A stretch of 64,000 nucleotides of DNA from Patescibacteria group bacterium (GCA_038065075.1 JBBTRQ010000019.1:9456-73455); one strand, 5' to 3'; positions 5,727 to 48,564 are shown, counted from the first letter of the stretch. Numbers and translations are program-made. The notes: generated by a model not told the origin, from the letters alone.

Positions 5727-6286
5727 AGTTGAGGTTCCACCATCAGTGCCTGAAGTTTTTTCAAGGCTCGATGGATATGTGACTTAATGGTTCCCTCCTT
5801 CATGCCAAGTGTGGTCGCGATCTCTGGAACGGTCATGTGGGAAAAGTAGCGAAGTGTCAGGATGTTCTGTTGCCGGCCGTTGAGCTTTCCCATCATCTCG
5901 CGCAACAAGCCGATTTGGCTCTCGAGTTCTGTCGCGTCCTCTCCCATGCGGTAAGCGATATCTGGACGGAAGTCTTCGCGGCCGATGAGCTCCGGCGCCT
6001 CATCCGTGGTGACCTCCAGAAACTTCGATCGTAGACGGTAGTAATTCCCTACTTGAGCGACGGCGATGGCGAAAAGCCATGACTTGAAGCTCGCGCCTTC
6101 TCGAGGTTTGTATCGATGGAGATTTTTCAGAGCCTGGAAAAACGTTTCGCTCGTCAGGTCCTTGGAAATTTCCGCGTTCCCCGTGCGGTTATACATAAAC
6201 CCAAAAACGGGTTGGTAGTACGTGTCGTACAGCCGCCCGAACGCTTCCGGGTCTGATTGTCCGTTGGCAACCAGGGTTTCTTCCAT
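5654..6286 (-). CDS. ECF-family RNA polymerase sigma factor (sigma-24 type)
   Basis: Region 2 ('YYQPVFGFMYNRTGNAEISKDLTSETFFQAL') and region 4 ('MTVPEIATTLGMKEGTIKSHIHRALKKL'). Start placed at MEETLVANG. A perfect palindrome CTTGTAAGTTACAAG lies just upstream. Confidence 0.8.
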   Translation of the reverse strand: MEETLVANGQSDPEAFGRLYDTYYQPVFGFMYNRTGNAEISKDLTSETFFQALKNLHRYKPREGASFKSWLFAIAVAQVGNYYRLRSKFLEVTTDEAPELIGREDFRPDIAYRMGEDATELESQIGLLREMMGKLNGRQQNILTLRYFSHMTVPEIATTLGMKEGTIKSHIHRALKKLQALMVEPQLCPASPSTSKSSYKSWVPRSTPAT

Positions 6287-6414
6287 AGCTTGTAAGTTAC
6301 AAGTTAGTCGAGTAGCTGACCCATAGCCCATTTATACCATGGGCCAGCAACCCTTTCGACCTTGCACTAGGTAAATCGTAGCACACCTAAAATCGTTGCG
6401 TCTCTCTTTTCAAG

Positions 6415-6443
6415 GAAACAAAAACCCACCAGCGTGTGGTGGG
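6415..6443 (-). terminator. Intrinsic terminator of the high-GC lipoprotein gene
   Basis: CCCACCAGCGTGTGGTGGG hairpin followed by a T-run on the minus strand. Confidence 0.5.
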
Positions 6444-6503
6444 TGCGTGGGGGGTCACATTGGTGCCGATCGGCTCCTAAGTGCCCCCCCGTAGCCTGAC
6501 GAC

Positions 6504-8540
6504 TCAGGGCGTGTGCGGGGTGAAGCCACCGAAGGCGAAGACCCCTCCGCCCTTGTACTCACCGTTGGCGAGGAAGGTTCCGCCATCGCAGGTGACGACG
6601 TACTTCCCGCCGACCTGGGGGCGGGAGCCGTTGACGAACGTGCAGTTCGTCGGCTCCGGCGGCGAGACGACCGCGGGGGTCGCGGTGGGCTCGGTCGTGG
6701 GCGCCTCGAGCTCGGCCGGCACCGGGGTCAGCCGGGGCCAGCGGGAGCACTTGGCCGGGAGCTTCTCGCACAGGAGCGCGAGGCTCGGGGCCATGAGATC
6801 GTCGTACTCGGCGTCGGTGTCGGGGTACAGGGTGATCTCGGGCAGTCCGCGCTCACGGCGGAGGCCCTTTGCCTCGACGTTGATGCGCAGAGCGTCTTTC
6901 GCTCTGCCGAACTCGCCCTCGAGCGCACAGTCGTGGCCGTAGTGGGCGTCGAGACTGCGGCGGAACCGCTCGCGCAACTCGTAGCGCAAGCTCTGCTCCT
7001 CTCCCGGCGTCTGTTCGATGCCGAGCTCCGTGCGGATGGCGGCCTCGCGCGAAGCCGAGACCTCACCGCGGGTCAGAAAGTGGAAGATGTACGCGATCTC
7101 CCGGCGGTACTCGTCGTCGGGGAGCTCCTTGTTCCAGGCCTCCCAGGTGTCTTCCATCTGGGTGTTGGCGCCGCCCTGGAGATCCTCCAGGATCAGCTTC
7201 TGGGTTGAGGTGATGGCACCCACGCTCTGGTAGAACGGGAGGCCCAGCGCGCAGAGCCCGAGCTCCCGCTCGAAGTCGAGCGAGCCGTCCGTCCCCGAGC
7301 GATTCGGGAACGTGTCGAGCATCGCGACCCAGAAGGCCGTGAGCTCGCGGTCGTTCATCGCCCGGACGCGTATGAGGTACGAGGTCAGGAGGTTCCTCTC
7401 CGTCTCATTCTCCCACATGTCCGTACTCCAGCCACTGTAGCTGCCGGGGTCGATACCCAGAATCGTGGTCGCGGGCTCGACCTTCTCCTCGCCCGCGACG
7501 GCCACCGGGAACATCTCGTCGATAGCCTGACGGGTGTGCGCGAAGTAGAGCTCGCGCAGAACCTGGTCGGCGCGGATGAGCTGATAGAGCTCGAGCGTGC
7601 CGGCCACCGGGGTCGAATAGCAGCCTTCGCCGCACTCGATCCAGATGAGGACGTTGGCGGCGGGGAGCTTGAGGTAGCGCGCCGCGTACTCGCGAGCCTT
7701 GACCTTGTCGGTCTTCCCGAGGATGGCGATGTCCGCCACGACGACCTCGGGGCCGAAGTACCGGCCCAAGCCGCTGAAGTCGTCCTTCTCCCAGGCGGTC
7801 ACCTCGCGGTCGAGGAGCTCGACCAGGATCGAGACGTCGCCCTTGAGGGCAAGCTCGCGTATCTGGTACGGGCTGAGGATCTCGGAGATCTCCCAGCCGT
7901 GGGTCTGGGCGATGTGCTTGGCGACGTCGATCTTGCCGTTGAGGAAGGCGTACTGGGCGACGTCCTGCGTACGGATCACCTGGTCGGCGCCGACCATCTT
8001 CTTGGTCGCACGATCGAGCGTGGCCAGATCTCCGGTGTGGACGGCGATCATCGCAACCGCCTTCCACTCGCCTTCCTTCTCGAGCTCGGTCGAGCAACGC
8101 TTGGCGTCCTCGAGCCGGCCCAGCACGATCCAAATCTGGGCGGCCTCCCACTCGCGATCCTGCGCCTCCAACGCGAGCGCCTCGTCGGCGCGTGGCGCGG
8201 GGGCGTCGGTGGTGCCGTAGTCGGTGCCGGGGTCGGCGACCTTCGCGGCGTCCCAGATGCTGGGGTCGCCCAGGATCGGATCGGGCTTCGAGCGGTCGAC
8301 GCGGAAGTCTGCGGTGTAGCGCCAGATGTCACGCGGGTGCGGGACGGCGGCGTCTGCCTCGATCTGGGTGGCGATGCCGGCGCGCCAGGCCTCGACGGCC
8401 GCGGCGTCCATGAAGGTCTTGTCGACCTCGGGCTCGGGCTCCGGCAGAGGCGCCTGGGTGGGCGAGGGCGGGTCGCTCTGGGGCTGGGAGCAGCCAAAGA
8501 GGACGACGAAGATGGCCAAAAACAGGTGTCGAAGGTTCAT
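6504..8540 (-). CDS. Lipoprotein of unknown function in a strongly GC-shifted single-gene island
   Basis: Signal peptide plus lipobox (LFLAIFVVLFGCSQ) and a Pro-rich linker. Codons are dominated by G/C at third positions, unlike the neighbours. Antisense ORFs here are GC shadows. Confidence 0.55.
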   Translation of the reverse strand: MNLRHLFLAIFVVLFGCSQPQSDPPSPTQAPLPEPEPEVDKTFMDAAAVEAWRAGIATQIEADAAVPHPRDIWRYTADFRVDRSKPDPILGDPSIWDAAKVADPGTDYGTTDAPAPRADEALALEAQDREWEAAQIWIVLGRLEDAKRCSTELEKEGEWKAVAMIAVHTGDLATLDRATKKMVGADQVIRTQDVAQYAFLNGKIDVAKHIAQTHGWEISEILSPYQIRELALKGDVSILVELLDREVTAWEKDDFSGLGRYFGPEVVVADIAILGKTDKVKAREYAARYLKLPAANVLIWIECGEGCYSTPVAGTLELYQLIRADQVLRELYFAHTRQAIDEMFPVAVAGEEKVEPATTILGIDPGSYSGWSTDMWENETERNLLTSYLIRVRAMNDRELTAFWVAMLDTFPNRSGTDGSLDFERELGLCALGLPFYQSVGAITSTQKLILEDLQGGANTQMEDTWEAWNKELPDDEYRREIAYIFHFLTRGEVSASREAAIRTELGIEQTPGEEQSLRYELRERFRRSLDAHYGHDCALEGEFGRAKDALRINVEAKGLRRERGLPEITLYPDTDAEYDDLMAPSLALLCEKLPAKCSRWPRLTPVPAELEAPTTEPTATPAVVSPPEPTNCTFVNGSRPQVGGKYVVTCDGGTFLANGEYKGGGVFAFGGFTPHTP

Positions 8541-8657
8541 CGCTGGTCTCCGGAGGGTTACGGGGCGGGAAATGAACACAACACGCAGGCAGGAAGCCCG
8601 CATGAAGGAAACAAAAATACCCTATTTTGGGCATTTTGTCAATGTTTGGACATCAAA

Positions 8658-29812: not shown

Positions 29813-29870
29813 AATCGCGACTATCCTACCTAAAATAGAAAAGACGCGCTAGTTGCGCGTCTGCGTGGCG

Positions 29871-30170
29871 CTAGGCGAACAGGAGGATCCCGCCGATCAT
29901 GCCGACCACGAAGCTGCAGGCGCTAACGCCGACCCAGACCGTGTGCCATGAGTGCAACCACGGCCATGGATCGGGCGCGGGCTGCAGGGCAGCGAGCGCC
30001 TGAACGGTTACGGTGTCATCGAGCTCGAGCTCGAGAACCTGTTCCTCGACGGGCGGCCGCCAAAACGGCGCCCCGACCGTGTCGTCCGGTCGCATGAGCG
30101 GCTGTGGCTTCTGCGGGACGATCACGTCGACAATCGTGGTCTCTTCTCCCCTTCGCGTCGATGCGTGCAT
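29871..30170 (-). CDS. Hypothetical small protein with a C-terminal TM segment
   Basis: GC-rich ORF at the left edge of the WD40/AAA island. Weak support. Confidence 0.2.
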   Translation of the reverse strand: MHASTRRGEETTIVDVIVPQKPQPLMRPDDTVGAPFWRPPVEEQVLELELDDTVTVQALAALQPAPDPWPWLHSWHTVWVGVSACSFVVGMIGGILLFA

Positions 30171-30262
30171 TGATCCTCCTCAAGATGAATAGCACGGCGA
30201 AAGGATACAGAACCATCGCCAACCAGTCAATCCCAGTTAAGCAACAGGTCTAATATGTTCCC

Positions 30263-30292
30263 TCAAGAAAAGAACCATCAGATGATGGTTCT
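30263..30292 (-). terminator. Intrinsic terminator of WD40 paralog 1
   Basis: AGAACCATC-agat-GATGGTTCT followed by TTTTCTTG on the minus strand. Confidence 0.5.
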
Positions 30293-30320
30293 TTGACGAA
30301 TGTTCCGGACGGCGTTTGTC

Positions 30321-31352
30321 CTACCAGATCGCCGCGGCCAGTGCCTCGGGGGTGAGGATGGTGTTGCGTCCCAAGTCCGGACAACCGAAGTCCAAGAGAC
30401 AGGGGGCATAGCAGTCGGACGATCTTGCCGGACACTGTGTGCGGTTCTTGGAAACCAGCAGTCCCTTGCCATCATCCACGGGGATGACCGCGTCGACCAC
30501 TTCCCAGAAGTCCGTAAGCGCAAGCTCCAGCTGACCATCCGGCCAGCTCATGGCGTGCAGGCAGCCGCCTCCGCGGGTGCCATCCACGACCAAGGTGTCC
30601 CACTGCCCCACGAACAGGGTGTTTCCTGTGAAGATAAGTGCGCGAATCTCTCCGCGTGAGTGAGCGGTGAGCTCCGGCCTGTGGCGTGCCGCTCCAGTCC
30701 TCACGTCCACCAGGTGGATCTGTCCGCCTTGTGTCCCACACAGAAGCTCTCCCTTAGGCGTGAAGGTGAGAGCCCAGATGCTGGAGTCCAGCCGGAGGCT
30801 ATGGAGAGTATGGAATCTGCCATCTCCCTGCCTTGAGAGGATCTTCAGGTATCCATCCCACATCCCCACCGCCAGGATGGAACCGTCTGAAGAGAATGCC
30901 AAGCGCAAGATCTGACCCTCAAACCCCTCGAGGCACCGGAAGGTATCGCTCCCGGGATATCTCAAGAAGAGCACATTCTCGTCACCCCCTGTGGCAAGGA
31001 TGCCGTCCTGGGACAGGGCGAGGTGGTTGACAGACCAACTGGAGCTCACAATCGGTTCACCTCTTTGGCACAGATACTCCACATCCCACTCACGCAGGGT
31101 GTGGTCGTGGCTGCACGAGTAGAGGGTGCGGCCATCAGACGAGAGCGCGAGGCCGGCTACACTGTCGGTATGCCCTTCAAGGACACTACAAACTTCCCCG
31201 GTCTCCACACTCCACAGATGGATACGAGGATCCGCGTTGAATCCCCCGCCCGCCAGTGTCTTCTCGTCCTGGGACAGAGCCAGGCACCAGATCCAGCTAT
31301 TGTGCCCCCTGAACAATCGCCGAGTGGTCGGCTCGGAAACGATGCGGGTCAT
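30321..31352 (-). CDS. WD40 beta-propeller protein (7 repeats), paralog 1, with a conserved Cys-containing C-terminal tail
   Basis: Repeated GH...WD units (GHTDSVAGLALSSDGRTLYSCSHDHTLREWDV etc.). Start set at MTRIVSEPTTRRLF, preceded by AAAGGAGACCACC. C-terminal tail is YAPCLLDFGCPDLGRNTILTPEALAAAIW. Confidence 0.7.
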   Translation of the reverse strand: MTRIVSEPTTRRLFRGHNSWIWCLALSQDEKTLAGGGFNADPRIHLWSVETGEVCSVLEGHTDSVAGLALSSDGRTLYSCSHDHTLREWDVEYLCQRGEPIVSSSWSVNHLALSQDGILATGGDENVLFLRYPGSDTFRCLEGFEGQILRLAFSSDGSILAVGMWDGYLKILSRQGDGRFHTLHSLRLDSSIWALTFTPKGELLCGTQGGQIHLVDVRTGAARHRPELTAHSRGEIRALIFTGNTLFVGQWDTLVVDGTRGGGCLHAMSWPDGQLELALTDFWEVVDAVIPVDDGKGLLVSKNRTQCPARSSDCYAPCLLDFGCPDLGRNTILTPEALAAAIW

Positions 31353-31478
31353 GGTGGTCTCCTTTGAATGAACGTCTTGACCATGAAAGGTCGATGGCTC
31401 GCAGGGGCGAGCGTCAACCTCTCGTGGAAAAGGCCTAACGAGTTGCGTGTCGCTAGGCATGTGGTGGTAGTGCCCGTT
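31353..31478 (-). repeat. Conserved terminator/leader module, copy 1
   Basis: On the minus strand: terminator hairpin GCCTAGCGA..TCGTTAGGCC + TTTTCC, then hairpin GCTCGCCCCTGCGAGC, then AAAGGAGACCACC-ATG. Near-identical copies at 32511-32645, 35310-35457, 36490-36590. Confidence 0.7.
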
Positions 31479-32510
31479 CTACCACCTCGCCGCGGCTCGT
31501 GCCTCGGGAGTGAGGATGGTGTGGCGTCCCAGATCCGGACAACCGAAGTCCAAGAGACAGGGGGCGTAGCGGTCGGGCGACTCGGCCGGACTTTGCGTGC
31601 GGTTCTTGGAGACCAGCAGACTCTGGCCACCATTCACGGGGATGACCGCGTTAACCCATCCCCAGAAGTCCGTAAGTGCAAGCTCCAGCGCACCATCCGG
31701 CCAGCTCACGGCGTGCAGGCGACCGCTTCCGCGGGTGCCATCAGCGACCGAGGTGTCACACTGCCCCACGAGCAGGGAGTTTCGCGTGAACGCGAGCGCG
31801 TGGATCTCTCCGCGTGTGTGAACGGTGAGCTCCGGCCTGTGGCGTGACACTCCCGTCCTCACGTCCACCAGATGGATCTGTCCGCCCTCTGTCCCACACA
31901 GAAGCTCTCCCTCCGGCGTGAAGGTGAGAGCCCAGATGATCGAGTCCAGCTGGAGGCTGTGGAGAGTCTGGAATCTGCAATCTTCCTGCCTTGAGAGGAT
32001 CTTCAGGTGTCCATCCCACATCCCCACCGCCAGGATGGAACCGTCTGAAGAGAGCGCCAAGCGCAAGATCTGACCCTCAAACCTCTCGATACACCGGAAG
32101 GTATGGCTCCCGGGGTTTCTCAAGAAGAGCGTCTTCTCATCACCCCCTGTGGCAAGAGTGCCGTCCTGGGACAGGGCGAGGTGGTTGAAAGGCTGCTTCG
32201 AGCGCAAAGTCGGTTCACCTCTTTGACGCAGATGCTCCATGTCCCACTCGCGCAGAGTGTTGTCGTGGCTGCACGAGTAGAGGGTCTTGTCATCAGGCGA
32301 GAACGCGAGGCCGGTGACACTGTCTGTGTGCCCTTCAAGGACACCACGAACTTCTCCGGTCTCCACGCTCCATAGGTGGATCCGAGGATCTGCTCCTGAA
32401 CCCCCGCCCGCCAGTGTCTTCCCGTCTTGGGACAGAGCAAGGCGCCAGATCCAGCCGAGGTGTCCATTGAACAATCGCCGAGTGGTTGGCTCGGAGATGG
32501 TACGGGTCAT
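31479..32510 (-). CDS. WD40 beta-propeller protein, paralog 2
   Basis: Same architecture and C-terminal tail as paralog 1 (MTRTISEPTTRRLFNGH...). Confidence 0.7.
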   Translation of the reverse strand: MTRTISEPTTRRLFNGHLGWIWRLALSQDGKTLAGGGSGADPRIHLWSVETGEVRGVLEGHTDSVTGLAFSPDDKTLYSCSHDNTLREWDMEHLRQRGEPTLRSKQPFNHLALSQDGTLATGGDEKTLFLRNPGSHTFRCIERFEGQILRLALSSDGSILAVGMWDGHLKILSRQEDCRFQTLHSLQLDSIIWALTFTPEGELLCGTEGGQIHLVDVRTGVSRHRPELTVHTRGEIHALAFTRNSLLVGQCDTSVADGTRGSGRLHAVSWPDGALELALTDFWGWVNAVIPVNGGQSLLVSKNRTQSPAESPDRYAPCLLDFGCPDLGRHTILTPEARAAARW

Positions 32511-32645
32511 GATGGTCTCCTTTGAATGAACGTCTTGACCATGAAAGGTCGATGACTCGCCAGGGGCGAGCGTCAACCTCTCGTGGAAAAGGCCTAGCGA
32601 GAGCGTGTCGCTAGGCGTGCGGCTTGTGAGCCACGTGGTTGGTGA
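32511..32645 (-). repeat. Conserved terminator/leader module, copy 2
   Basis: See copy 1. Confidence 0.7.
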
Positions 32646-35309
32646 CTAATTCGTCACCGATGGCTTAACCGGCGGGATGACCTGCATACGGATGTCAGAC
32701 TCCTCTCCGTGCTGCTTGAGCACCTCCAGCGCCCACTCCACCTCGTCCCGCGCGTTGGCGGGCAGAAGCGCTCTGGAGCGCGCGTTGGCTACGGCCAACA
32801 GGGTCATGCGGGCGATTTGCGTTTGCTGTGCCTGCGGCATGTAATCGCCGATGGCCCAGAGCAGATCATCACGATTCACGCCAGGCTCCCCGTGCGTGTC
32901 GGCGTGCCGGACGATCACCTCGATGTCCGCGCCGGAGAGGCGCTTGGTCTTGTCGGCGAACTCCGTGAAGTCCGTGATGTCCGTGGTGAACCCGCCGCGC
33001 CGAATCATCACGCGGAACAAGGCTTCACGGGTCGTGGCATCGGGCATGAGCACCGGGATGACTTCGTCGCTTCGACCGGCACGCAGCATGGCCGCGTCGA
33101 TGAGATCCGGTCGGTTGCTGGCCGTCATGTAGAACACGCGGCCTCGGATGGTCGGATCGGCGAGGAAGGTCATCCACGCCTGACGCGTCCGGTTGGACAC
33201 ACCCGAGTCGCCGCTGAATCCATCGCGTCCGCCGTCGTTCTGATCGATCTCGTCCTGGAATACCACGCACGGCGCCATCAACCTTACGGCCTCCAGCTGG
33301 TCGTGCACGTTGCGCTCCGATGAGCCAACCCACATCTGTTGAGTGTGGCGAGGGATCAGCAGCAAGAGACCGGAGGCGTGCGCCAACGCCGTCGCCAGCG
33401 CACTCTTGCCGGTACCGGGCGGTCCCAGCAGTGCACACCCCATGGGCACTCGCGAGAGGTCGCCCGTGCGCATGCGCTCGCAGACGTCCAGGAGAAACGT
33501 CTTGACGCCGTCGAGTCCGGCGATGCCGTCAAACCCGTAGGGTGGGTCGATCACCTCAAACAGATGCCCGAAGCGCTCGTTGAGGATGACCAGCCTGTGT
33601 GCGACCACGTCCTTGTGGGACAGCGGCTGGTTGCCGGCCTGCGCGCGACGAAGCAGACGGCGCAGATCGCGGTAGCCCATGTTGCCGGTCAGACGAGCCA
33701 GCTCGACAACCCCCATGGTGGGCGTGTCGAACAACGATTCGTCGTCACGGGTTGCCGTGAGCCGTCGATGCTGCTCGCGCAAGTCGGTTAGTGTCTCGCT
33801 GGAGAGGTTCGGAAGACGAGCCTTGCTGTCTCGCAGTGTCTGCGCCAACTGCTGCGCGATCCGTGTGTGGTCCTCTTGCAGCTCCTGCAACCGACTCACA
33901 GCCGCTGTCGTCAGCCGATCGAGCTCGCTTTGCGCCTCTCGGATCGACGCCGGCTCGCTCGAGCACAGCGCCTCCAAGTTCCGTTGCAGCTCCTCCAGAC
34001 ACTCTGTTGCCTGCTTTCGAGCAAACGGCTTCACCGTTAGGCAAGCGACGTTGTCGGCATTGGCCACGCAGATGTCGGCGTCGTTTGCCTTGAAGCGCAT
34101 CACCAGCAATCCGCCCTCAAAGAAGAATTGGGCGGGGATGCTGGAGTTACGCGAGTCGGTGACCGGCTTGTTCGGGTTCGCCCCGCTGGCGAACTGCACT
34201 CCGCTACGTCTCGTCGCGCTCTTGAGCACAGTGAAGCGCTGTGCCCCACCACGCGAGTCCTGGACACTGACCATATCGCCGGGCGCCAAATTGGCCCAGC
34301 GAGCCTCGTCAAGAGACGCGTCATCGGTCAGGAGAGGATCGCTCCGCAGCTGTGCGCCAAGGGCATCGATCTGCGCTTGGAGATTCGCCAACTGCCCGGC
34401 ATTATCCGCGTTGAGGGACTGCCGCAGAGCCGTAAGCGAGGATCGGCACCGCTTCACGGCCGCCAGATGCCCCTTGTACTCACCGTCTTGCTTGAGGGAC
34501 TTGCGTAGGGCGCTGTGCCGTTCGTCTGCCGTCCGAGCCGCAACGATGTCGTCATTCGCTCGCGCTTGCAGTACTTGGATCTCCTCGGCGATCTGCATCT
34601 CCAGCTCTTGCTGGCGCTGCAGGCCACTGTCCGTCCTACACACCCGGCGCAAGTAAGCCTCACGCTCCGCCTGAAGGGGGGGATCCACCTTGATCAAGCA
34701 GATGGGCGAGCTGCTGTCGCGCAGCATCTGGGGCAACAAGCCGGAAGATCTGGCGCTCATGAGCACCAAATGGCCGACGATCCCAAAGGCATCGTCTTCC
34801 GCCATTCGCCGGATGAGCAACGGCGTACGCGACGACATGGCGCCGGCAGGGGAACTGTCGTCCAGACAGTAGGTGTCGACATTGGGCAGAATCACCGTGA
34901 AGCGAACCGAATCGCCGACGGCGTGCCGCAGCACGTTCATGATCTGCGACAAAGCCCCGGTGGGATCCGTCGTCTGCTCGACCCTCGACGCCACCTGCGC
35001 TCGCGCGCGGGCGATGGGATCGTCAGCTTCACCGGCAGACTGCCGGTTCTTCTTAAGCAGCTCCCCGAACGCCTCATGATCTTCGTCTCTGGGGAAGCTC
35101 AAGCCCAGAGCCGGATCAAACACGACGAAACGACGATCGGGCTCCTGCCTGACCAACGCGTCGAGTACCAGCCGGTGCCAAGGCAACAGCGCCATGGATG
35201 ACGCATCGGTCGTATTGGGGAAGCCGTCTGCGACGTTCCCGTCAAACAGGAAGCAGAAATGGCACCTGGCGCGCTCCTGCTCGAAGGTTCTCATCCAAGA
35301 TGGAGTCAT
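32646..35309 (-). CDS. Large (≈887 aa) protein: N-terminal unknown region + extensive coiled coils + C-terminal classical AAA ATPase domain
   Basis: Walker A GPPGTGKS, Walker B VVFQDEID, second region of homology RPDLIDAAMLRAGRSDEVIPV. Heptad-rich Q/L/A segments lie upstream. Start set at MTPSWMRTFEQ behind GGAGAAGAG. Confidence 0.7.
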   Translation of the reverse strand: MTPSWMRTFEQERARCHFCFLFDGNVADGFPNTTDASSMALLPWHRLVLDALVRQEPDRRFVVFDPALGLSFPRDEDHEAFGELLKKNRQSAGEADDPIARARAQVASRVEQTTDPTGALSQIMNVLRHAVGDSVRFTVILPNVDTYCLDDSSPAGAMSSRTPLLIRRMAEDDAFGIVGHLVLMSARSSGLLPQMLRDSSSPICLIKVDPPLQAEREAYLRRVCRTDSGLQRQQELEMQIAEEIQVLQARANDDIVAARTADERHSALRKSLKQDGEYKGHLAAVKRCRSSLTALRQSLNADNAGQLANLQAQIDALGAQLRSDPLLTDDASLDEARWANLAPGDMVSVQDSRGGAQRFTVLKSATRRSGVQFASGANPNKPVTDSRNSSIPAQFFFEGGLLVMRFKANDADICVANADNVACLTVKPFARKQATECLEELQRNLEALCSSEPASIREAQSELDRLTTAAVSRLQELQEDHTRIAQQLAQTLRDSKARLPNLSSETLTDLREQHRRLTATRDDESLFDTPTMGVVELARLTGNMGYRDLRRLLRRAQAGNQPLSHKDVVAHRLVILNERFGHLFEVIDPPYGFDGIAGLDGVKTFLLDVCERMRTGDLSRVPMGCALLGPPGTGKSALATALAHASGLLLLIPRHTQQMWVGSSERNVHDQLEAVRLMAPCVVFQDEIDQNDGGRDGFSGDSGVSNRTRQAWMTFLADPTIRGRVFYMTASNRPDLIDAAMLRAGRSDEVIPVLMPDATTREALFRVMIRRGGFTTDITDFTEFADKTKRLSGADIEVIVRHADTHGEPGVNRDDLLWAIGDYMPQAQQTQIARMTLLAVANARSRALLPANARDEVEWALEVLKQHGEESDIRMQVIPPVKPSVTN

Positions 35310-35457
35310 GACTCTTCTCCTCGTGTGGTGTGGGTTGGAAATTGAATGAACGTCTTGACCATGAGGGGTCGATGGCTCGCAGGGGCGAGCGTCAACCTCT
35401 CGTGGAAAAGGCCTAGCGAGCAGCGTGTCGCTAGGCATGCGGTGGGTAGTGCCCGTT
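35310..35457 (-). repeat. Conserved terminator/leader module, copy 3
   Basis: See copy 1. Confidence 0.65.
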
Positions 35458-36489
35458 CTACCACACCGCCGCGGCCAGTGCCTCAGGGGTGAGGATGGTG
35501 TTGCGCCCCAGACCCGGATAGCCAAAGTCCAAGAGACAGGGGGCGTAGCGGTCGGACGATCTTGCCGGACACTCCATGCGGTTCTTGGAAACCAGCAGTC
35601 CCTTGCCACCATTCACAGGGATGATCACGTCGACCCCTCCCCAGAAGTCCGTAGGGGCAAGCTCCAGCTGACCATCCGGCCAGCTCATGGCGTGCAGGCG
35701 GCCAAGTCCGCGGGTTCCATCCGTAATCGAAGTATCCTGCTGCCCCACAAGCAGAGCGTTTCGCGTGAACGCAAGCGCGCAGATCTCTCCACGTGTGCGA
35801 ACGGTGAGCTCTGGCCTGTGGCGTGACTCTCCCGTCCTCACGTCCACCAGGTGAATCTGCCCGCCTCCTGTCCCGCATAGGAGCTCTCCATCCGGCGTGA
35901 AGGTGAGCACCCAGATGCTTGAATCCAGCCGGAAGCGGTGGAGAGTCTGGAAGCTGCCATCTTCTTGCCTTGAGAGGACTCGCAGATGGCCGTAAGCCCT
36001 CCCCACCGCCAGGGTGGAACCGTCTGCAGAGAATGCCAGGCACCGGATCCAATTCTCGAACCCCTCGATGCGCTGGACGGTTTTGCTCCCGGGACGTCTC
36101 AAGAAGACAACGCCATCGCCACCTCCTGTGGCGAGTGTGCCGTCCTGGGACAGGGCGAGGTGACTGAGAGTACCCCTCGAACTCACAATCGGTTCACCTC
36201 TTTGGCGCAGATGCTTCACATCCCACTCACGCAGGGTGTGGTCGTAGCTGCACGAGTAGAGGGTGCGGCCATCATGCGAGAACGCGAGGCCGGTGACACT
36301 GTCTGTGTGCCCTTCAAGGACACCACGAACTTCCCCGGTCTCCACGCTCCATAGGTGGATACGAGGATCAAATCCTGAACCCCCGCCTGCCAGTGTCTTC
36401 CCGTCTGGGGACAGAGCAAGGCACCAGATCCAGCTGTTGTGTCCCCTGAACAATCGCCGAGTGGTTGGCTCGGAAACGGTACGGGTCAT
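35458..36489 (-). CDS. WD40 beta-propeller protein, paralog 3
   Basis: MTRTVSEPTTRRLFRGHNSWIWCLALSPDGKTLAGGG... with the same C-terminal tail. Confidence 0.7.
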   Translation of the reverse strand: MTRTVSEPTTRRLFRGHNSWIWCLALSPDGKTLAGGGSGFDPRIHLWSVETGEVRGVLEGHTDSVTGLAFSHDGRTLYSCSYDHTLREWDVKHLRQRGEPIVSSRGTLSHLALSQDGTLATGGGDGVVFLRRPGSKTVQRIEGFENWIRCLAFSADGSTLAVGRAYGHLRVLSRQEDGSFQTLHRFRLDSSIWVLTFTPDGELLCGTGGGQIHLVDVRTGESRHRPELTVRTRGEICALAFTRNALLVGQQDTSITDGTRGLGRLHAMSWPDGQLELAPTDFWGGVDVIIPVNGGKGLLVSKNRMECPARSSDRYAPCLLDFGYPGLGRNTILTPEALAAAVW

Positions 36490-36590
36490 GGTGGTCTCCT
36501 TTGAATGAACGTCTTGACCATGAAAGGTCAACGGCTCACCAGGGGCGAGCGTCGACCTCTCGTGGAAAAGGCCTAGCGAGTTGCGTGTCG
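36490..36590 (-). repeat. Conserved terminator/leader module, copy 4
   Basis: See copy 1. Confidence 0.65.
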
Positions 36591-37193
36591 CTAGGCATGC
36601 GAACCAAGACCCAACAGTCGTAGAACACTGGCGATTCGTCCGTGATCCGTCACGCCGTGCGAGACCACTTGACCGCCATCGATCTCCAGCGCGATGACGC
36701 TGTCCAAATCCTCTGAACGGTATCGCCCTGTCAACAGATGCACTCTCTGGTTACTACTTCCTCGCAGGGGAAGGTTGTCCACGGCCAAGAGTTGCACGAA
36801 CCGACCGTCGATAAGCACGTCCAGTTCTCGCAGAAGTTCGCGCGCCCCATCCGGCGCATGGGCACCGCGCAAGAACTTCCGTGTGTAGCCTGACCAGCAC
36901 AGCACGGACAGACCCTGCTCCTTGGCCGCGTGCGCGATCTGCGCAAGCGCCCGAGCTTGCTCAAAGGGCTCGCCTCCGGAGAAGCTCACGCCTTCGATCC
37001 CGAATCGTTCTTGCGCTTGCGCGATGCATGTGATCAACGCGTCGACAGCGACGAGGTTCCCTCCATCGCCCCAGAGCTCCGGCGTGGTGCAACCATGGCA
37101 GCCGATGGTGCAGCCCTTGACCCAAAGACACAGGCGCTGACCCGGACCCATGGCAGGCGTGCACTCGACCACGCGCCCGACGCGCAGGATCAT
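36591..37193 (-). CDS. Small radical-SAM / 4Fe-4S single-cluster protein of the NrdG / QueE activase type
   Basis: 'GPGQRLCLWVKGCTIGCHGCTTPELW' gives C-x3-C-x2-C in the NrdG/QueE-like context. About 200 aa. Confidence 0.55.
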   Translation of the reverse strand: MILRVGRVVECTPAMGPGQRLCLWVKGCTIGCHGCTTPELWGDGGNLVAVDALITCIAQAQERFGIEGVSFSGGEPFEQARALAQIAHAAKEQGLSVLCWSGYTRKFLRGAHAPDGARELLRELDVLIDGRFVQLLAVDNLPLRGSSNQRVHLLTGRYRSEDLDSVIALEIDGGQVVSHGVTDHGRIASVLRLLGLGSHA

Positions 37194-37402
37194 CCTCCAC
37201 CTCTGACCTTCCCACCGGATGGGACGGGAATGGGCGGAGCGCTTGCGTCGGGCACGTTCATCTCGTCAACACGTCCGCCCAACAACGCCAGGATGGCGCG
37301 CAGGCGTCGAGCCTCCTCCTGGCAGACGCCCGGAAGCGCTTCGACTTGGATGTCCACCGTGCCGTCGCCCTTCACGACGACGATGATCTCTCTGGCGCTC
37401 AT
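37190..37402 (-). CDS. Small protein (70 aa), translationally coupled to the radical-SAM gene
   Basis: 4-nt overlaps on both sides. Ends in a Pro/Gly-rich tail (PPIPVPSGGKVRGGG). Confidence 0.3.
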   Translation of the reverse strand: MSAREIIVVVKGDGTVDIQVEALPGVCQEEARRLRAILALLGGRVDEMNVPDASAPPIPVPSGGKVRGGG

Positions 37403-37965
37403 ACGTCCACCTTTCGGCCGACGATGACCAGGGCGCCGTCGGCTCCGCGCGTTTCCACGATGTCATCGACACAGAGAATCTGCATGGCCGCACGCATCTG
37501 CTGCTCATGAAAGTGACGCCGCAGACAGTCCTTCCACTGTGCAAGCTCGGCAGGGTGGCACTGCTGCGTTCCCGTGTTCCAGAACTGAAAGAAGGTGCCG
37601 TCCTCTCGGATCCCAACCCCCAACTGGAGGAATGTCCCGTTATTGAGCACGCCAAGAACTTCGCCTTGGTCCGGATCGCCGCTCTTGGAGCCGTAGGTGC
37701 TGGCGTTGTCGTAGCTCTTGGCGCATGTGCAACCCATCTCTTGCGCGGCTGCCGCAAGCGCTTGGCGCATGGCGTGGGCACGCACCTCCTGCCAATTGAT
37801 GGCGGCCAGATCCGCATCCTGCGCGCCGATCTGACCTAGTGCGCCCGTGACGGATCCGGCATCGGCGATCTCTCCGATGTGGAGCTTGTGATAGTGCAGA
37901 GACACCTGTCCTCCTGTGGGGAAGGTTATTCCATGGACAAAAGAGACGATTTTTCCCTTTGCCAA
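37399..37965 (-). CDS. Hypothetical protein (188 aa), first gene of the radical-SAM operon
   Basis: No recognisable motif. Overlapping stops and starts indicate an operon. Confidence 0.35.
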   Translation of the reverse strand: MAKGKIVSFVHGITFPTGGQVSLHYHKLHIGEIADAGSVTGALGQIGAQDADLAAINWQEVRAHAMRQALAAAAQEMGCTCAKSYDNASTYGSKSGDPDQGEVLGVLNNGTFLQLGVGIREDGTFFQFWNTGTQQCHPAELAQWKDCLRRHFHEQQMRAAMQILCVDDIVETRGADGALVIVGRKVDV

Positions 37966-38069
37966 GGAGAAACGTTTTTATATCAAAAACGCGAATGTGT
38001 CAATGAAAAATCCCGGACATCTAATCCGAGATATTCTGCTAGAAAGGTCTCTACAATATGATCACCTAC

Positions 38070-46005: not shown

Positions 46006-48564
46006 TTAAAACTCACTCGCCTCTGGCATAGCTGGCGTCGCCCCACCACGATTCCCCAATGCGGTGCGTTCCATAATCTCGGCTTCGACAATCGAACGGT
46101 CACGGCCATACTTGAGGCGCGACAATTCCTTAATCGCGGTGGCGAGTTCCACGTCCCCTTTTGGTGGAGGCGTGAAGTTCATGGTGAATGGCTTCTGTTG
46201 GGCGTTGTCCACGATCATTTTAACGTACCAGGTGAATTTATCCGAATTGATCAGATCGTAGCCGGAAAACTCGGGCGAATAAATCTTCCCGAGCGTCTCC
46301 ACGTCCTCCGGTCCAATACGCGCGACAAAGTTCGTCCCGACGTTGCCGAACACGGCATCCTTAATCTTCGTGTCGTTATTTTTCACGAGTTGGCCGATGT
46401 ATTGGTGGGCGATGATGAGGTTCAGACGGTACTTACGCGCTTCAGACAGAATCGTCGCGATCGAATCGGTAATGTAGTTTTGAAACTCGTCGATGTAGAG
46501 ATAGAAGTCATGACGCTGATCCTCCGGCAAATCGGCTCGCGTGAGCGCGGCCATCTGAAGTTTCGAGACGATCACCAGACCGAGAAGCTCCGCGTTCACG
46601 TCTCCGGTTTTTCCCTTGGAGAGGTTCACGAGCAGAATCTTCTTGTTGTCCATGACTTCGCGGAAGTTGAAACTCGACCTACTCTGGCCGATGATGTTTC
46701 GCATCATCTCATTCTCAACGAAACGACCGACTTTGGACACGAGGTAGCCCATCATCTCGGATTTGTGATAGTCACTGGTGTTATCGATTTCATCTTCCCA
46801 GAACGAGCGCACCACGGGATCCTTCAGCTTCGCGCGCCACATATCCTGGAACTTCTTGTCCGTCACCATGCGCGGAATCTCAGCGATGGTTCCAGGGTTT
46901 TCCGGGTCGGACATGAGGGTGAGCATGAAGTTACGCATCTGGTGCTCGAACATCGGACCGATCATCTCTGGTGGAAACAGCTTGTAAAAAACAGAGATCA
47001 TTTCCTGCACGGCAAAATCTTTCATGGCGTCGTTTGGCGCCTCGAGCATATTGAGCCCCATAGGCCGTTCCATGTCCGACGGATTGAACACAATCACATC
47101 GTCCACACGATCCTTGGGGATGTTCGCCAAAATAAGTTCGATGAGATCCCCGTGCGGCTCCACCACGGCCACACCGTGACCGGCCTTGATATCCTGAATC
47201 GCCAACGCCGCAATGAGTTGCGACTTACCGGAACCAGACTTGCCCACGACATACATGTGCCGTGTGCGGTCGACCGACTTCATCCAGATCGGCGTCTTGA
47301 TGCCACGGAACATGTTATAGCCAAGCTCGATGTCGCCATCCTCTGGCCCAGGAATACCAGATGGTGCAGGACCTTTGCGCGCCCCGAGCCACTTGATGTT
47401 GGGCGTCTCTGTCCATGGCAAAGGCAGATGCCACAAACTCGCCATTTCCTCCGCGTTGAGAACGATTGTGTTGCTCTCGTTGAATCCGCGATAGATAAAG
47501 TCGCGGATAATACGCTTCTTGCGGCGCGGGACAACCTTCACGAACGAATTGCCGTACTCGTAGATATTGTACTGCGCGAACGCGTTAAGCATGTTCTGCA
47601 AAAGCGTCTGGGCGTTTGTGGCGGACCTAGAGGACGTCACGAGCCGAATGCACACATCCATCCCCGCCTTGCTCGCTTTTGTTTGCAGTCCCTTCACGAT
47701 CTGATCCTCCAGAGGTGAGAGTCGATATTCTTTTTCTGGTTCCTGCGGCTTGTCTCCCCCAAACCCCGTGAGCTCGGCCAAATTCGACTTGGACTTCTTC
47801 TTTCCCGCGATCGCCTCCTCCAGCTTCATGCCTTGCATCATGTTGGTGGCGATCTTCACGCCCTTCTTGCGCCACTTGCCATACGAAGAACGCACCAGGA
47901 ACTGGAATGCCGCTCCGTCGCCCTCGGGAATTTTGGAGAGCACGTTTGTGATGGCGTTGAGGGGATCCTTCTCCAACTCTGTATAGGTCTTGATCGGGAA
48001 GGCGTTTTGGCGTCGAAAAACCAGATGACTTCCTAAAATGTACCCCTCAGGCTGAAAGATATTGTAGTCCTCGACTTCTTCCGTGTAGGCGTCTGGATAG
48101 GCGGCCGAGAGTTGCTGTTCGACGAATTCGCGCAATTCAACCGGCGCACTCACGTAAAACTTGATGAGCTTCTTCTCGACGACGATCTCAAACGAAAACT
48201 CATCGTGCCGTCCCAGGAGCCAGGCTCTGAATCCGTGCTGGGCCGTCAATCCACCGACTGATGAAAAAAACGATTCCGCTGCCGCGATCCCCTCATGTAC
48301 TTGATCTTTCGTGGGACCACGCTCGCTCTCCTCCTCATGACGGAATTTCGGCAGGGTCACCAACAGCGTCACTCGACGAAACGTGGCCTGTTTGGCAAGG
48401 GATATTCGTCGAAGAAAAAATCTCACCACAAACAACAGTCCAACAACAATGGCGAGTCCGAGCACGACCCACAAAATCACCCCGGCAATAAAAAGATCCC
48501 CCTGGGCCGCGGCGCGCACGGGATCCGGTTGTGTCTGAAGTCCGAACTGAAAGAGGTACATCAC
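46006..48564 (-). CDS. VirB4/TraC-like (HerA/FtsK superfamily) ATPase with an N-terminal membrane anchor
   Basis: N-terminal TM helices, Walker A GKSGSGKS and Walker B-like 'LYIDEFQN'. 852 aa. Confidence 0.6.
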   Translation of the reverse strand: MMYLFQFGLQTQPDPVRAAAQGDLFIAGVILWVVLGLAIVVGLLFVVRFFLRRISLAKQATFRRVTLLVTLPKFRHEEESERGPTKDQVHEGIAAAESFFSSVGGLTAQHGFRAWLLGRHDEFSFEIVVEKKLIKFYVSAPVELREFVEQQLSAAYPDAYTEEVEDYNIFQPEGYILGSHLVFRRQNAFPIKTYTELEKDPLNAITNVLSKIPEGDGAAFQFLVRSSYGKWRKKGVKIATNMMQGMKLEEAIAGKKKSKSNLAELTGFGGDKPQEPEKEYRLSPLEDQIVKGLQTKASKAGMDVCIRLVTSSRSATNAQTLLQNMLNAFAQYNIYEYGNSFVKVVPRRKKRIIRDFIYRGFNESNTIVLNAEEMASLWHLPLPWTETPNIKWLGARKGPAPSGIPGPEDGDIELGYNMFRGIKTPIWMKSVDRTRHMYVVGKSGSGKSQLIAALAIQDIKAGHGVAVVEPHGDLIELILANIPKDRVDDVIVFNPSDMERPMGLNMLEAPNDAMKDFAVQEMISVFYKLFPPEMIGPMFEHQMRNFMLTLMSDPENPGTIAEIPRMVTDKKFQDMWRAKLKDPVVRSFWEDEIDNTSDYHKSEMMGYLVSKVGRFVENEMMRNIIGQSRSSFNFREVMDNKKILLVNLSKGKTGDVNAELLGLVIVSKLQMAALTRADLPEDQRHDFYLYIDEFQNYITDSIATILSEARKYRLNLIIAHQYIGQLVKNNDTKIKDAVFGNVGTNFVARIGPEDVETLGKIYSPEFSGYDLINSDKFTWYVKMIVDNAQQKPFTMNFTPPPKGDVELATAIKELSRLKYGRDRSIVEAEIMERTALGNRGGATPAMPEASEF

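Follow-up and report, generated by a model that had tools for sequence, protein, structure and literature searches.

A tandem AAA protein with a predicted stalk, and its radical-SAM and WD40 gene neighbours, in Patescibacteria

The window analysed here is a stretch of 64,000 nucleotides from a Patescibacteria group bacterium (GCA_038065075.1 JBBTRQ010000019.1:9456-73455). It carries a gene of the AAA superfamily (32646..35309) that encodes 887 amino acids (aa) and lies in the minus-strand order A - B - rSAM - WD40-A - AAA - WD40-B - WD40-C - orf99 - LepA, where rSAM denotes a radical S-adenosylmethionine (SAM) enzyme. All window genes and upstream elements given below with coordinates lie on this strand. 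The AAA gene product is a tandem classical AAA protein in which a pseudo-ATPase first domain (D1*) is paired with an active second domain (D2), in the order D1* - stalk - linker - D2. We describe the protein, its relatives and the genes that accompany it, and consider what the cassette may do.

Results

The AAA gene and its overall architecture

An earlier reading of the stretch, made from the DNA sequence alone (the sequence-only reading), had placed the gene at these coordinates and given its product 887 residues. Both are borne out by translation, by a GAGGAG Shine-Dalgarno sequence ahead of the start at 35309 (MTPSWMRTF), and by an alignment in which the N-termini and an invariant Trp5 of 23 homologues agree with that start. 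The mechanical open reading frame (ORF) reaches 35612 (988 aa), with a 5' extension that overlaps the upstream WD40 gene. It stays open to that point because a conserved intergenic element by chance contains no stop codon. The identical AAA protein is recorded in ENA and Logan assemblies.

An AlphaFold2 model built on a 24-sequence family alignment reached a predicted local distance difference test score (pLDDT) of 83 and a predicted template modelling score of 0.60; a single-sequence prediction was uninformative (pLDDT 41). The family model contains an alpha/beta domain at residues 1-225, three short helices at 534-580 that belong to the linker, and an AAA domain with its lid at 590-870. Foldseek alignments of this model to p97, Cdc48, NVL and Rix7 extend over ~850-900 columns, and the predicted domains stack as those of tandem AAA proteins do. 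The disordered C-terminal tail (32646..32699; pLDDT <50 at residues 876-887) ends in KPSVTN and has no hydrophobic-tyrosine-X (HbYX) motif. Asn is the C-terminal residue in 13 of 22 complete family members, and the residues before it are not conserved.

An intact motor domain at the C-terminus

By its motifs, D2 (residues 590-870; 32700..33542) is the motor of the protein: no catalytic motif has been lost, and the aromatic pore loop is preserved. Its AAA core gives the sole Pfam recognition in the protein (PF00004, E=4e-22 at residues 627-752, plus a weak lid). A phmmer search against PDB sequences aligns only residues ~590-805, with D2 of p97/Cdc48 as the best match (domain E 1e-31 to 2e-33). 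Walker A (GPPGTGKS, 629-636, with K635), Walker B (VVFQDEID, 682-689, with D686/E687), a pore-loop-2 region (GDSGVS), the sensor-1 N732 and the Arg fingers R743/R746 are all in place, as is the NRPDLIDAAMLRAGRSDE segment that the sequence-only reading had quoted. Each catalytic motif is unchanged in 23-24 of the 24 homologues. Pore loop 1 (M659-W660-V661-G662) aligns to MWFG of p97 D2, and its columns across the 24 homologues are W19/F4, V21 and G24. The C-terminal domain had been called a textbook member of the classical AAA clade. It has the full PF00004 motif set claimed for it, together with the aromatic-hydrophobic-Gly pore loop 1 of that clade.

A degenerate AAA domain at the N-terminus

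The residues ahead of the first long helix, beginning FCFLFDGNVADGF, had been set apart as an additional region of about 250 residues without an assigned function. The region exists, but it spans about 225 residues (34635..35309), and it too is an alpha/beta domain of the classical AAA type, in degenerate form, with D1 of NVL, Rix7 and p97 as its homologues. Compared with solved structures, a profile of this domain alone matches NVL D1 (E=2.7e-10), Rix7 (9e-9), AFG2/SPATA5 and VAT (~1e-7) and p97 D1 (residues 287-382, ~1e-6), in register from Walker B through the first lid helix. An hhalign comparison of D1* with the protein's own D2 finds the identical register (P=0.007). In the family consensus, HAFLFxGxxGDGFP is followed by ILPDxD and then by SAP..ALDERLRRPD.P...I.I..P...ER..FL; this is the order of strand 1 and P-loop, Walker B, sensor 1 with the second region of homology (SRH), and the post-SRH segment in classical AAA domains.

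The nucleotide-handling residues have been replaced. At the Walker A position the family has GxxGDGFP (GNVADGFP in the window), with no Lys or Thr; Lys-Thr has become Phe-Pro (F30 in 21/22 sequences, P31 in 22/22). The Walker-B-like motif is ILPNVD, and Pro-Asp stands for Asp-Glu across the family. The SRH-like motif, ERLRRPD in the family and QMLRDSS in the window, is followed by P211 and R216. The protein thus has the two classical AAA domains of a type II (tandem) AAA protein, D1 on D2, but not the Walker A Lys/Thr of a nucleotide-binding D1. Since the N-terminal region is homologous to an AAA D1 and D2 is intact, the protein is a tandem AAA whose D1* is a pseudo-ATPase. With neither Lys/Thr in Walker A nor Glu in Walker B, D1* is most likely a non-hydrolysing scaffold ring.

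A probable stalk between the two AAA domains

Between the AAA domains lies a helix/beta/helix module of about 300 residues. Arm 1 is a long predicted helix (residues 227-323; 34341..34631; pLDDT 75-90) with a kink near 271-275 and no proline. It is followed by a small all-beta domain (residues ~340-428; 34026..34292), whose seven predicted strands span 346-427 with no helix between them, and by arm 2, a second long helix (residues 429-522; 33744..34025) with breaks near 451-453 and 499-504. Across helix, beta domain and helix, pLDDT is about 71-90, save for a block of 51 at residues 411-420. The model therefore agrees with the beta segment that had been proposed between two helices. The two helices had also been described as heptad-rich coiled coils. 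This is borne out in part: their length and helicity hold in the model, and a hydrophobic periodicity of 3.5 residues that exceeds shuffled sequences is confined to parts of arm 2 (z 2.4-2.8) and does not extend to arm 1. The beta domain starts with the family motif W..L..GD, in which W, G and D are nearly invariant. The sequence-only reading had suggested that the domain could be an oligonucleotide-binding (OB) fold. Its profile found no significant match among PDB sequences, the best being an Spt5 KOW domain at E=1.3.

The lengths of arms 1 and 2 correlate closely among the 24 homologues (r=0.96). In three members both arms are shortened together, to 33/27, 44/63 and 54/46 residues against about 103/97, and one of these three (P0030) also lacks the beta domain. 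The helical linker that follows (residues 524-589; 33543..33740), by comparison, is nearly fixed in length: it has 66 residues in 19/24 members, ranges from 61 to 66 overall, and is retained in relatives that have no stalk. Its family motifs are ARLTQGLGYRD and YGHLxEIVxPxYGF. As the alignments have it, the helix/beta/helix module is an insertion between D1* and D2. Because the arm lengths change in pairs and the module is dispensable in relatives, we infer that it probably folds as an antiparallel hairpin, a stalk tipped by the beta domain. Arms of ~95 helical residues would give this stalk a length of ~14 nm, and an AAA hexamer would display six such arms, radially or axially.

A small family concealed by generic annotation

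Word-indexed searches of 5.8 billion proteins with the full-length sequence, the N-terminus and a family profile recovered nothing beyond the protein itself and generic AAA proteins. An exhaustive HMMER search with residues 1-590 found 30 representatives at E<1e-3, 25 of them at E<1e-10. Most members have 850-980 aa and are 25-35% identical over the entire N-terminal region. In other words, the word-indexed search missed wholly a family that sits in databases behind the labels 'AAA family ATPase', 'AAA ATPase central domain protein', 'ATP-binding protein' and 'hypothetical protein'. All members with a named source are Patescibacteria or Candidatus Uhrbacteria. A scan of GTDB species genomes with the N-terminus gave no match, and no relatives were found on viral contigs. 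The family is small, restricted to Patescibacteria among its named members and, on the profile matches, related to Cdc48, VAT, NVL and Rix7.

A metagenome scan added a sister group without the stalk, with five complete members of roughly 570-645 aa (loci L095-L099 in our numbering, among them L095:9092-11029 and L097:9209-11065, together with L096, L098 and L099) and a shorter partial one (L100). They keep D1*, the 66-aa linker and D2, and are without the arms and the beta domain. They also retain the family motifs GDSG (in the pore-loop-2 region), DFIPSASQ and CSSR.LLPPN. Neighbours of the stalk-less relatives gave no Pfam matches.

A radical-SAM enzyme and two small proteins accompany the stalked form

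The most constant partner of the AAA gene, absent from the sequence-only account, is the rSAM gene (36591..37193). It encodes a NrdG-like radical-SAM activase of 200 aa with CxxxCxxC and GSSNQ motifs (Pfam Fer4_12, E=2e-31). The protein scores 91.4 bits against the NCBIfam NrdG equivalog TIGR02491, below the cut-off of 126.1, and there is no NrdD in the cluster or among the scanned window ORFs. Its sole PDB relative is PflA (E=7e-6). On its sequence features it is a minimal activase-type enzyme; enzymes of this type act on protein substrates.

Two small genes precede it. Protein B (70 aa; 37190..37402) has an invariant Cys27 and a Pro/Gly-rich tail, and its stop codon overlaps the rSAM start. 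Protein A (168 aa; 37399..37905) has a stop codon that overlaps the start of B. Neither has a Pfam or PDB match. Profiles find protein B in L086, L088, L090, L091 and L094, and protein A in L086, L088, L090 and L094. A possible likeness of A and B to the DUF1257 (Ycf35)/DUF2997 pair, which in cyanobacteria adjoins a ferredoxin gene (PMC4284462), was dropped: no member of either protein gave a Pfam match to it at E<=10. A reading of B as a ubiquitin- or Pup-like tag was rejected because its C-terminus is not conserved. The sequences end GGKVRGGG, GKVGGK, GRVKG, KVRVGK, KLKIGS and PARAKN, with no conserved terminal GG, GGQ or GGE.

The gene order recurs in other loci: A-B-rSAM-WD40x3-AAA-WD40x5 in L086, A-B-rSAM-WD40-AAA-WD40x3 in L088, A-B-rSAM-AAA-WD40x2 in L094, A-B-rSAM-AAA in L090, B-rSAM-AAA on the truncated contig L091, rSAM-AAA in L092 and AAA-WD40 in L083-85. 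In stalk-bearing loci that include upstream DNA, an rSAM orthologue always adjoins the AAA homologue (7/7). A and B precede the rSAM gene wherever the locus DNA extends far enough. At three stalk-less loci none of rSAM, A and B lies within ±9 kb (0/3). The cassette loci span 27-47% AAA identity and a GC content of 0.43-0.65. This conserved gene order suggests that the AAA protein works with the NrdG-like activase and with A and B, which are translationally coupled to the activase.

WD40 propellers with a shared C-terminal tail

Three WD40 genes, each of 343 aa, belong to the cassette in the window: paralogue A directly upstream of the AAA gene (35458..36489; Pfam WD40, E=3e-30), paralogue B directly downstream (31479..32510; Pfam WD40) and paralogue C beyond it (30321..31352; Pfam WD40). 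They are 76-78% identical to one another, A being 76-77% identical to B and C, with a synonymous divergence (dS) of 0.25-0.32 and a ratio of non-synonymous to synonymous divergence (dN/dS) of 0.45-0.49. WD40 genes flank the AAA homologue in 5/7 stalk-bearing loci with downstream sequence, and the stalk-less L096 has one 1.3 kb downstream. The association of AAA and WD40 proteins proposed earlier is thus real, and the AAA protein usually also works, if gene order is a guide, with one to eight tail-sharing propellers.

The tail is what these proteins have in common. Whereas the propeller bodies share just 14-26% identity between loci, the C-terminal tail is conserved as [LIVF][LF]DFGxPxLG. It reads LLDFGYPGLG in paralogue A, occurs in the window at 30321-30390, 31479-31548 and 35458-35527, and is found in the WD40 genes of L086, L088, L094 and L096. 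The proteins have endings such as LDEAFV, LSPEEAxxYI or ILTPEALAAAxW. If the divergent propellers had a partner in common, a conserved flexible tail of this kind would suit the element by which it docks or engages them. The conserved Gly of the tail lies 15-20 residues before the C-terminus, and, as a speculative analogy, the position of its 'DFG' recalls that of glycyl-radical sites.

An upstream element common to the AAA and WD40 genes

An element of ~100 nucleotides (nt) precedes all four of these genes. Alignment, pattern search and folding place copy 1 before WD40-A (36490..36600), copy 2 before the AAA gene (35310..35440, with a 21-nt extra spacer ahead of the Shine-Dalgarno sequence), copy 3 before WD40-B (32511..32620) and copy 4 before WD40-C (31353..31462). 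Each has a perfect 9-bp hairpin, CCTTTTCC, a long compound hairpin (dG -45 to -53 kcal/mol) and AGGAG. Identity is 92-95% among the copies but 84-86% among the WD40 coding sequences, and exact-pattern matches within the window occur only at the three WD40 genes and the AAA gene. An Rfam scan of the island gave no match for the element. The element is probably a leader common to these genes that serves regulation or processing. The absence of an in-frame stop in it lengthens the mechanical ORFs, to 988 from 887 aa for the AAA gene and to 357-379 from 343 aa for the WD40 genes. The extended ORFs seem to share an N-terminal 'peptide' (…STFHGQDVHSKETT), which is an annotation trap.

The island and its surroundings

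Terminator-like hairpins bracket the block from protein A to orf99 (~29842-38032), whose GC content is 0.60-0.63 compared with about 0.55. In the two closest genomes found (L003, L005) the Dus/RimK/VKOR-LepA-RecJ-PilM synteny is kept, but the whole block is missing. Given this flanking synteny, the raised GC and the bracketing hairpins, the block is a lineage-specific insertion. At its end lies orf99 (29871-30170), which has a hydrophobic, transmembrane-like C-terminus (VWVGVSACSFVVGMIGGILLFA), a promoter-like site of its own (30230..30202) and no homologue in the other loci.

The LepA protein of the window is 72% and 69% identical to those of two metagenome-assembled genomes of the Patescibacteria group and 64% identical to that of a Candidatus Uhrbacteria one. 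In the window the cassette has a beta-CASP RNase gene on one side and lepA on the other; in L086 and L088 (GC 0.43-0.45, Uhrbacteria-type) it directly follows two tandem class II genes of the aspartyl- or asparaginyl-tRNA synthetase (AspRS/AsnRS) type. Other large ORFs of the window are housekeeping genes (UvrA, UvrC, LigA, DnaG, RpoD, CysS, GatA, RecJ, LepA). Further features are an 852-aa ORF with a type IV secretion coupling-protein (TraG/TrwB-like) domain (46006-48564) and a 699-aa ORF without a Pfam match (6504-8603) in a second GC-rich stretch (0.63 at 6001-8000).

Discussion

A classical-clade AAA protein with an intact motor and pore loop could reasonably be an unfoldase or segregase, and the suggestion to that effect in the sequence-only reading is consistent with the motifs reported here. 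The most likely role, going by sequence and gene context, is that of a D2-driven unfoldase or segregase acting on the WD40 proteins or on the radical-SAM module. Specifically, we propose an uncharacterised stalked tandem AAA whose D2 would unfold or extract a client, most plausibly by way of the WD40 tail, alongside the rSAM/A/B cassette, and give this reading a probability of about 0.6. The stalk tips or D1* would dock a client. The D2 pore loops would then grip a flexible tail, most plausibly the conserved C-terminal tail of the WD40 proteins, and ATP hydrolysis in D2 would unfold the client or extract it from a complex. Such a mechanism would resemble the removal of Nsa1/WDR74 by Rix7/NVL and the work of Pex1/Pex6 with its inactive D1 ring. 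The rSAM/A/B module, which tracks the presence of the stalk, probably modifies or activates the same clients or is docked by the stalk.

Several observations count against this proposal. Conserved Asp and Arg residues remain in D1* (LPDxD, ERLRRPD), so some ligand binding by D1* is possible. Heptad periodicity in arm 1 is not above shuffles, and both the hexamer and the antiparallel pairing of the arms enter the model by inference. The stalk-bearing loci L090 and L092 have no WD40 gene on their short contigs. By eye, the AAA, A, B and WD40 proteins contain no glycyl-radical motif of the RVxG[FWY] type, and what ties the AAA protein to WD40, A, B and rSAM is genomic and sequence context.

The sequence-only reading saw instead the layout of a proteasomal ATPase (Mpa, ARC or PAN), which would feed a proteasome or read a Pup- or ubiquitin-like tag. 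There is a likeness: in those proteins, too, a coiled coil and a small beta domain precede a classical AAA motor in the sequence. Their AAA domain is single, however, their coiled coil stands at the extreme N-terminus, an OB ring sits directly on the pore, and they have an HbYX or GQYL tail and proteasome and Pup partners. The protein described here has two AAA domains, the N-terminal one being the degenerate D1, with the helix-beta-helix module inserted between them and missing from the stalk-less relatives. Helices of ~95 aa lie on both sides of the beta domain, and the 66-aa linker follows before the motor; since the arms co-vary in length, the beta domain is probably carried by a stalk rather than seated at the pore. 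Scores against the proteasomal models fall far short (31.4 bits against a cut-off of 504.75 for pup_AAA, TIGR03689; 95-101 against 500 for PAN, TIGR01242/NF003069), and the predicted structure resembles the tandem p97/Cdc48/NVL/Rix7 proteins. No HbYX or GQYL tail is present, and no Hb-Y-X occurs among 22 homologues. Protein B lacks a conserved terminal GG, GGQ or GGE, and Pfam found no proteasome, Pup or PafA/Dop among the 25 window ORFs scanned. We regard a proteasomal role as highly improbable. The cassette could alternatively serve in anti-phage or inter-microbial conflict, with diversifying WD40 sensors, an IetA-like AAA switch or executor and an rSAM and A/B effector. Weak PADLOC and NCBIfam matches to IetA/IteA (E 6e-15 and 2e-14), the lineage-specific insertion of the GC-rich island, which the two closest genomes found lack while keeping the gene order around it, the variation of WD40 copy number from 1 to 8 and the precedent of radical-SAM effectors in some conflict systems (PMC7159879) would all suit such a role. 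However, the IetA matches do not reach beyond the generic AAA core, the IteA model (NF042959) gives 53 bits where its cut-off is 510, the cluster contains no IetS-like protease or other recognised effector, and viral contigs carry no relatives. The dN/dS of the WD40 paralogues does not indicate positive selection overall, and the two Uhrbacteria-type contigs share a housekeeping position next to two AspRS-type genes. On balance we consider a conflict function unlikely.

A plainer possibility is that the protein is a general Cdc48-like quality-control unfoldase, and that its adjacency to rSAM/A/B and WD40 genes is historical linkage. Classical AAA unfoldases are often broad in action, two loci have no adjacent WD40 gene, and the stalk-less relatives occur in unrelated contexts. 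This explanation seems doubtful to us in view of the rSAM adjacency at all seven stalk-bearing loci and at none of the three stalk-less ones, over divergent sequences and GC contents, and of the overlapping stop and start codons of A, B and rSAM; in the window, moreover, the AAA and WD40 genes share a leader, and the WD40 proteins carry a tail motif specific to the cluster. Beyond the unfoldase or segregase reading that we prefer, the cassette might be a protein-modification and remodelling machine, in which the radical-SAM enzyme marks a client, the stalk tip recognises the mark and the D2 pore takes the client in. The client may be the WD40 C-terminal tail or protein B, and the mark a radical or covalent modification. 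We offer this elaboration tentatively and think it has only a small chance of being correct. If true, an AAA unfoldase would be linked to radical-SAM chemistry, in a functional analogue of tag-and-unfold systems such as Pup/Mpa that shares neither their evolutionary origin nor their chemistry.

Looking across these results, the family and the cassette seem to be new: a type II classical AAA variant within an undescribed gene cassette. Literature searches covering WD40, AAA, radical SAM, Patescibacteria and Uhrbacteria returned no description of either, nor of a link between AAA unfoldases and radical-SAM enzymes, to which the tie between the stalk, an activase-type rSAM enzyme and two small proteins points. 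Given that tiny Patescibacteria genomes spend at least 8 kb on the cassette (to 14 kb with eight WD40 genes), it is probably important to them.

Comparison with known systems

The protein adds to the architectures of the Cdc48/NVL type a bacterial form whose D1 ring is a pseudo-ATPase and whose two rings are separated in sequence by a long stalk. The closest relative of its motor domain is D2 of Cdc48/p97/VAT, and the best NCBIfam model is that of the Cdc48 family, TIGR01243, although its 109.6 bits lie far below the cut-off of 802.65. Unlike those proteins, it has no CDC48_N double-psi barrel (no match to PF02359 or PF02933, with D1* beginning at about residue 18), a degenerate D1, a stalk insertion and no HbYX-like C-terminus. 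Pex1/Pex6 works with an inactive D1 ring, as D1* may do here; it differs in being eukaryotic and peroxisomal and in forming a hetero-hexamer, which has double-psi N domains but lacks a coiled-coil insertion.

NVL and Rix7, which act in eukaryotic ribosome biogenesis, are likewise tandem classical AAA proteins with a D2 pore loop, and NVL D1 is the best match of the D1* profile; sequence identity to them is about 22-24%. In contrast to them, the window protein has no Walker A Lys/Thr in D1 and no N-terminal substrate-binding domain, it carries ~300 residues of stalk between D1 and D2 followed by the 66-aa linker, and it is bacterial (Patescibacteria) and encoded in an operon with a radical-SAM enzyme. 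Rix7/NVL, which is also the closest match in structure, extracts the WD40 protein Nsa1/WDR74 from pre-ribosomes. The WD40 neighbours of the AAA gene parallel that client, as an analogy and not as evidence. For the stalk, the nearest analogues, in architecture only, may be the middle domain of ClpB/Hsp104 and the stalk of dynein, long coiled coils that likewise emerge from between or within AAA modules. These elements serve regulation or partner binding; the dynein stalk is antiparallel and ends in a small binding domain.

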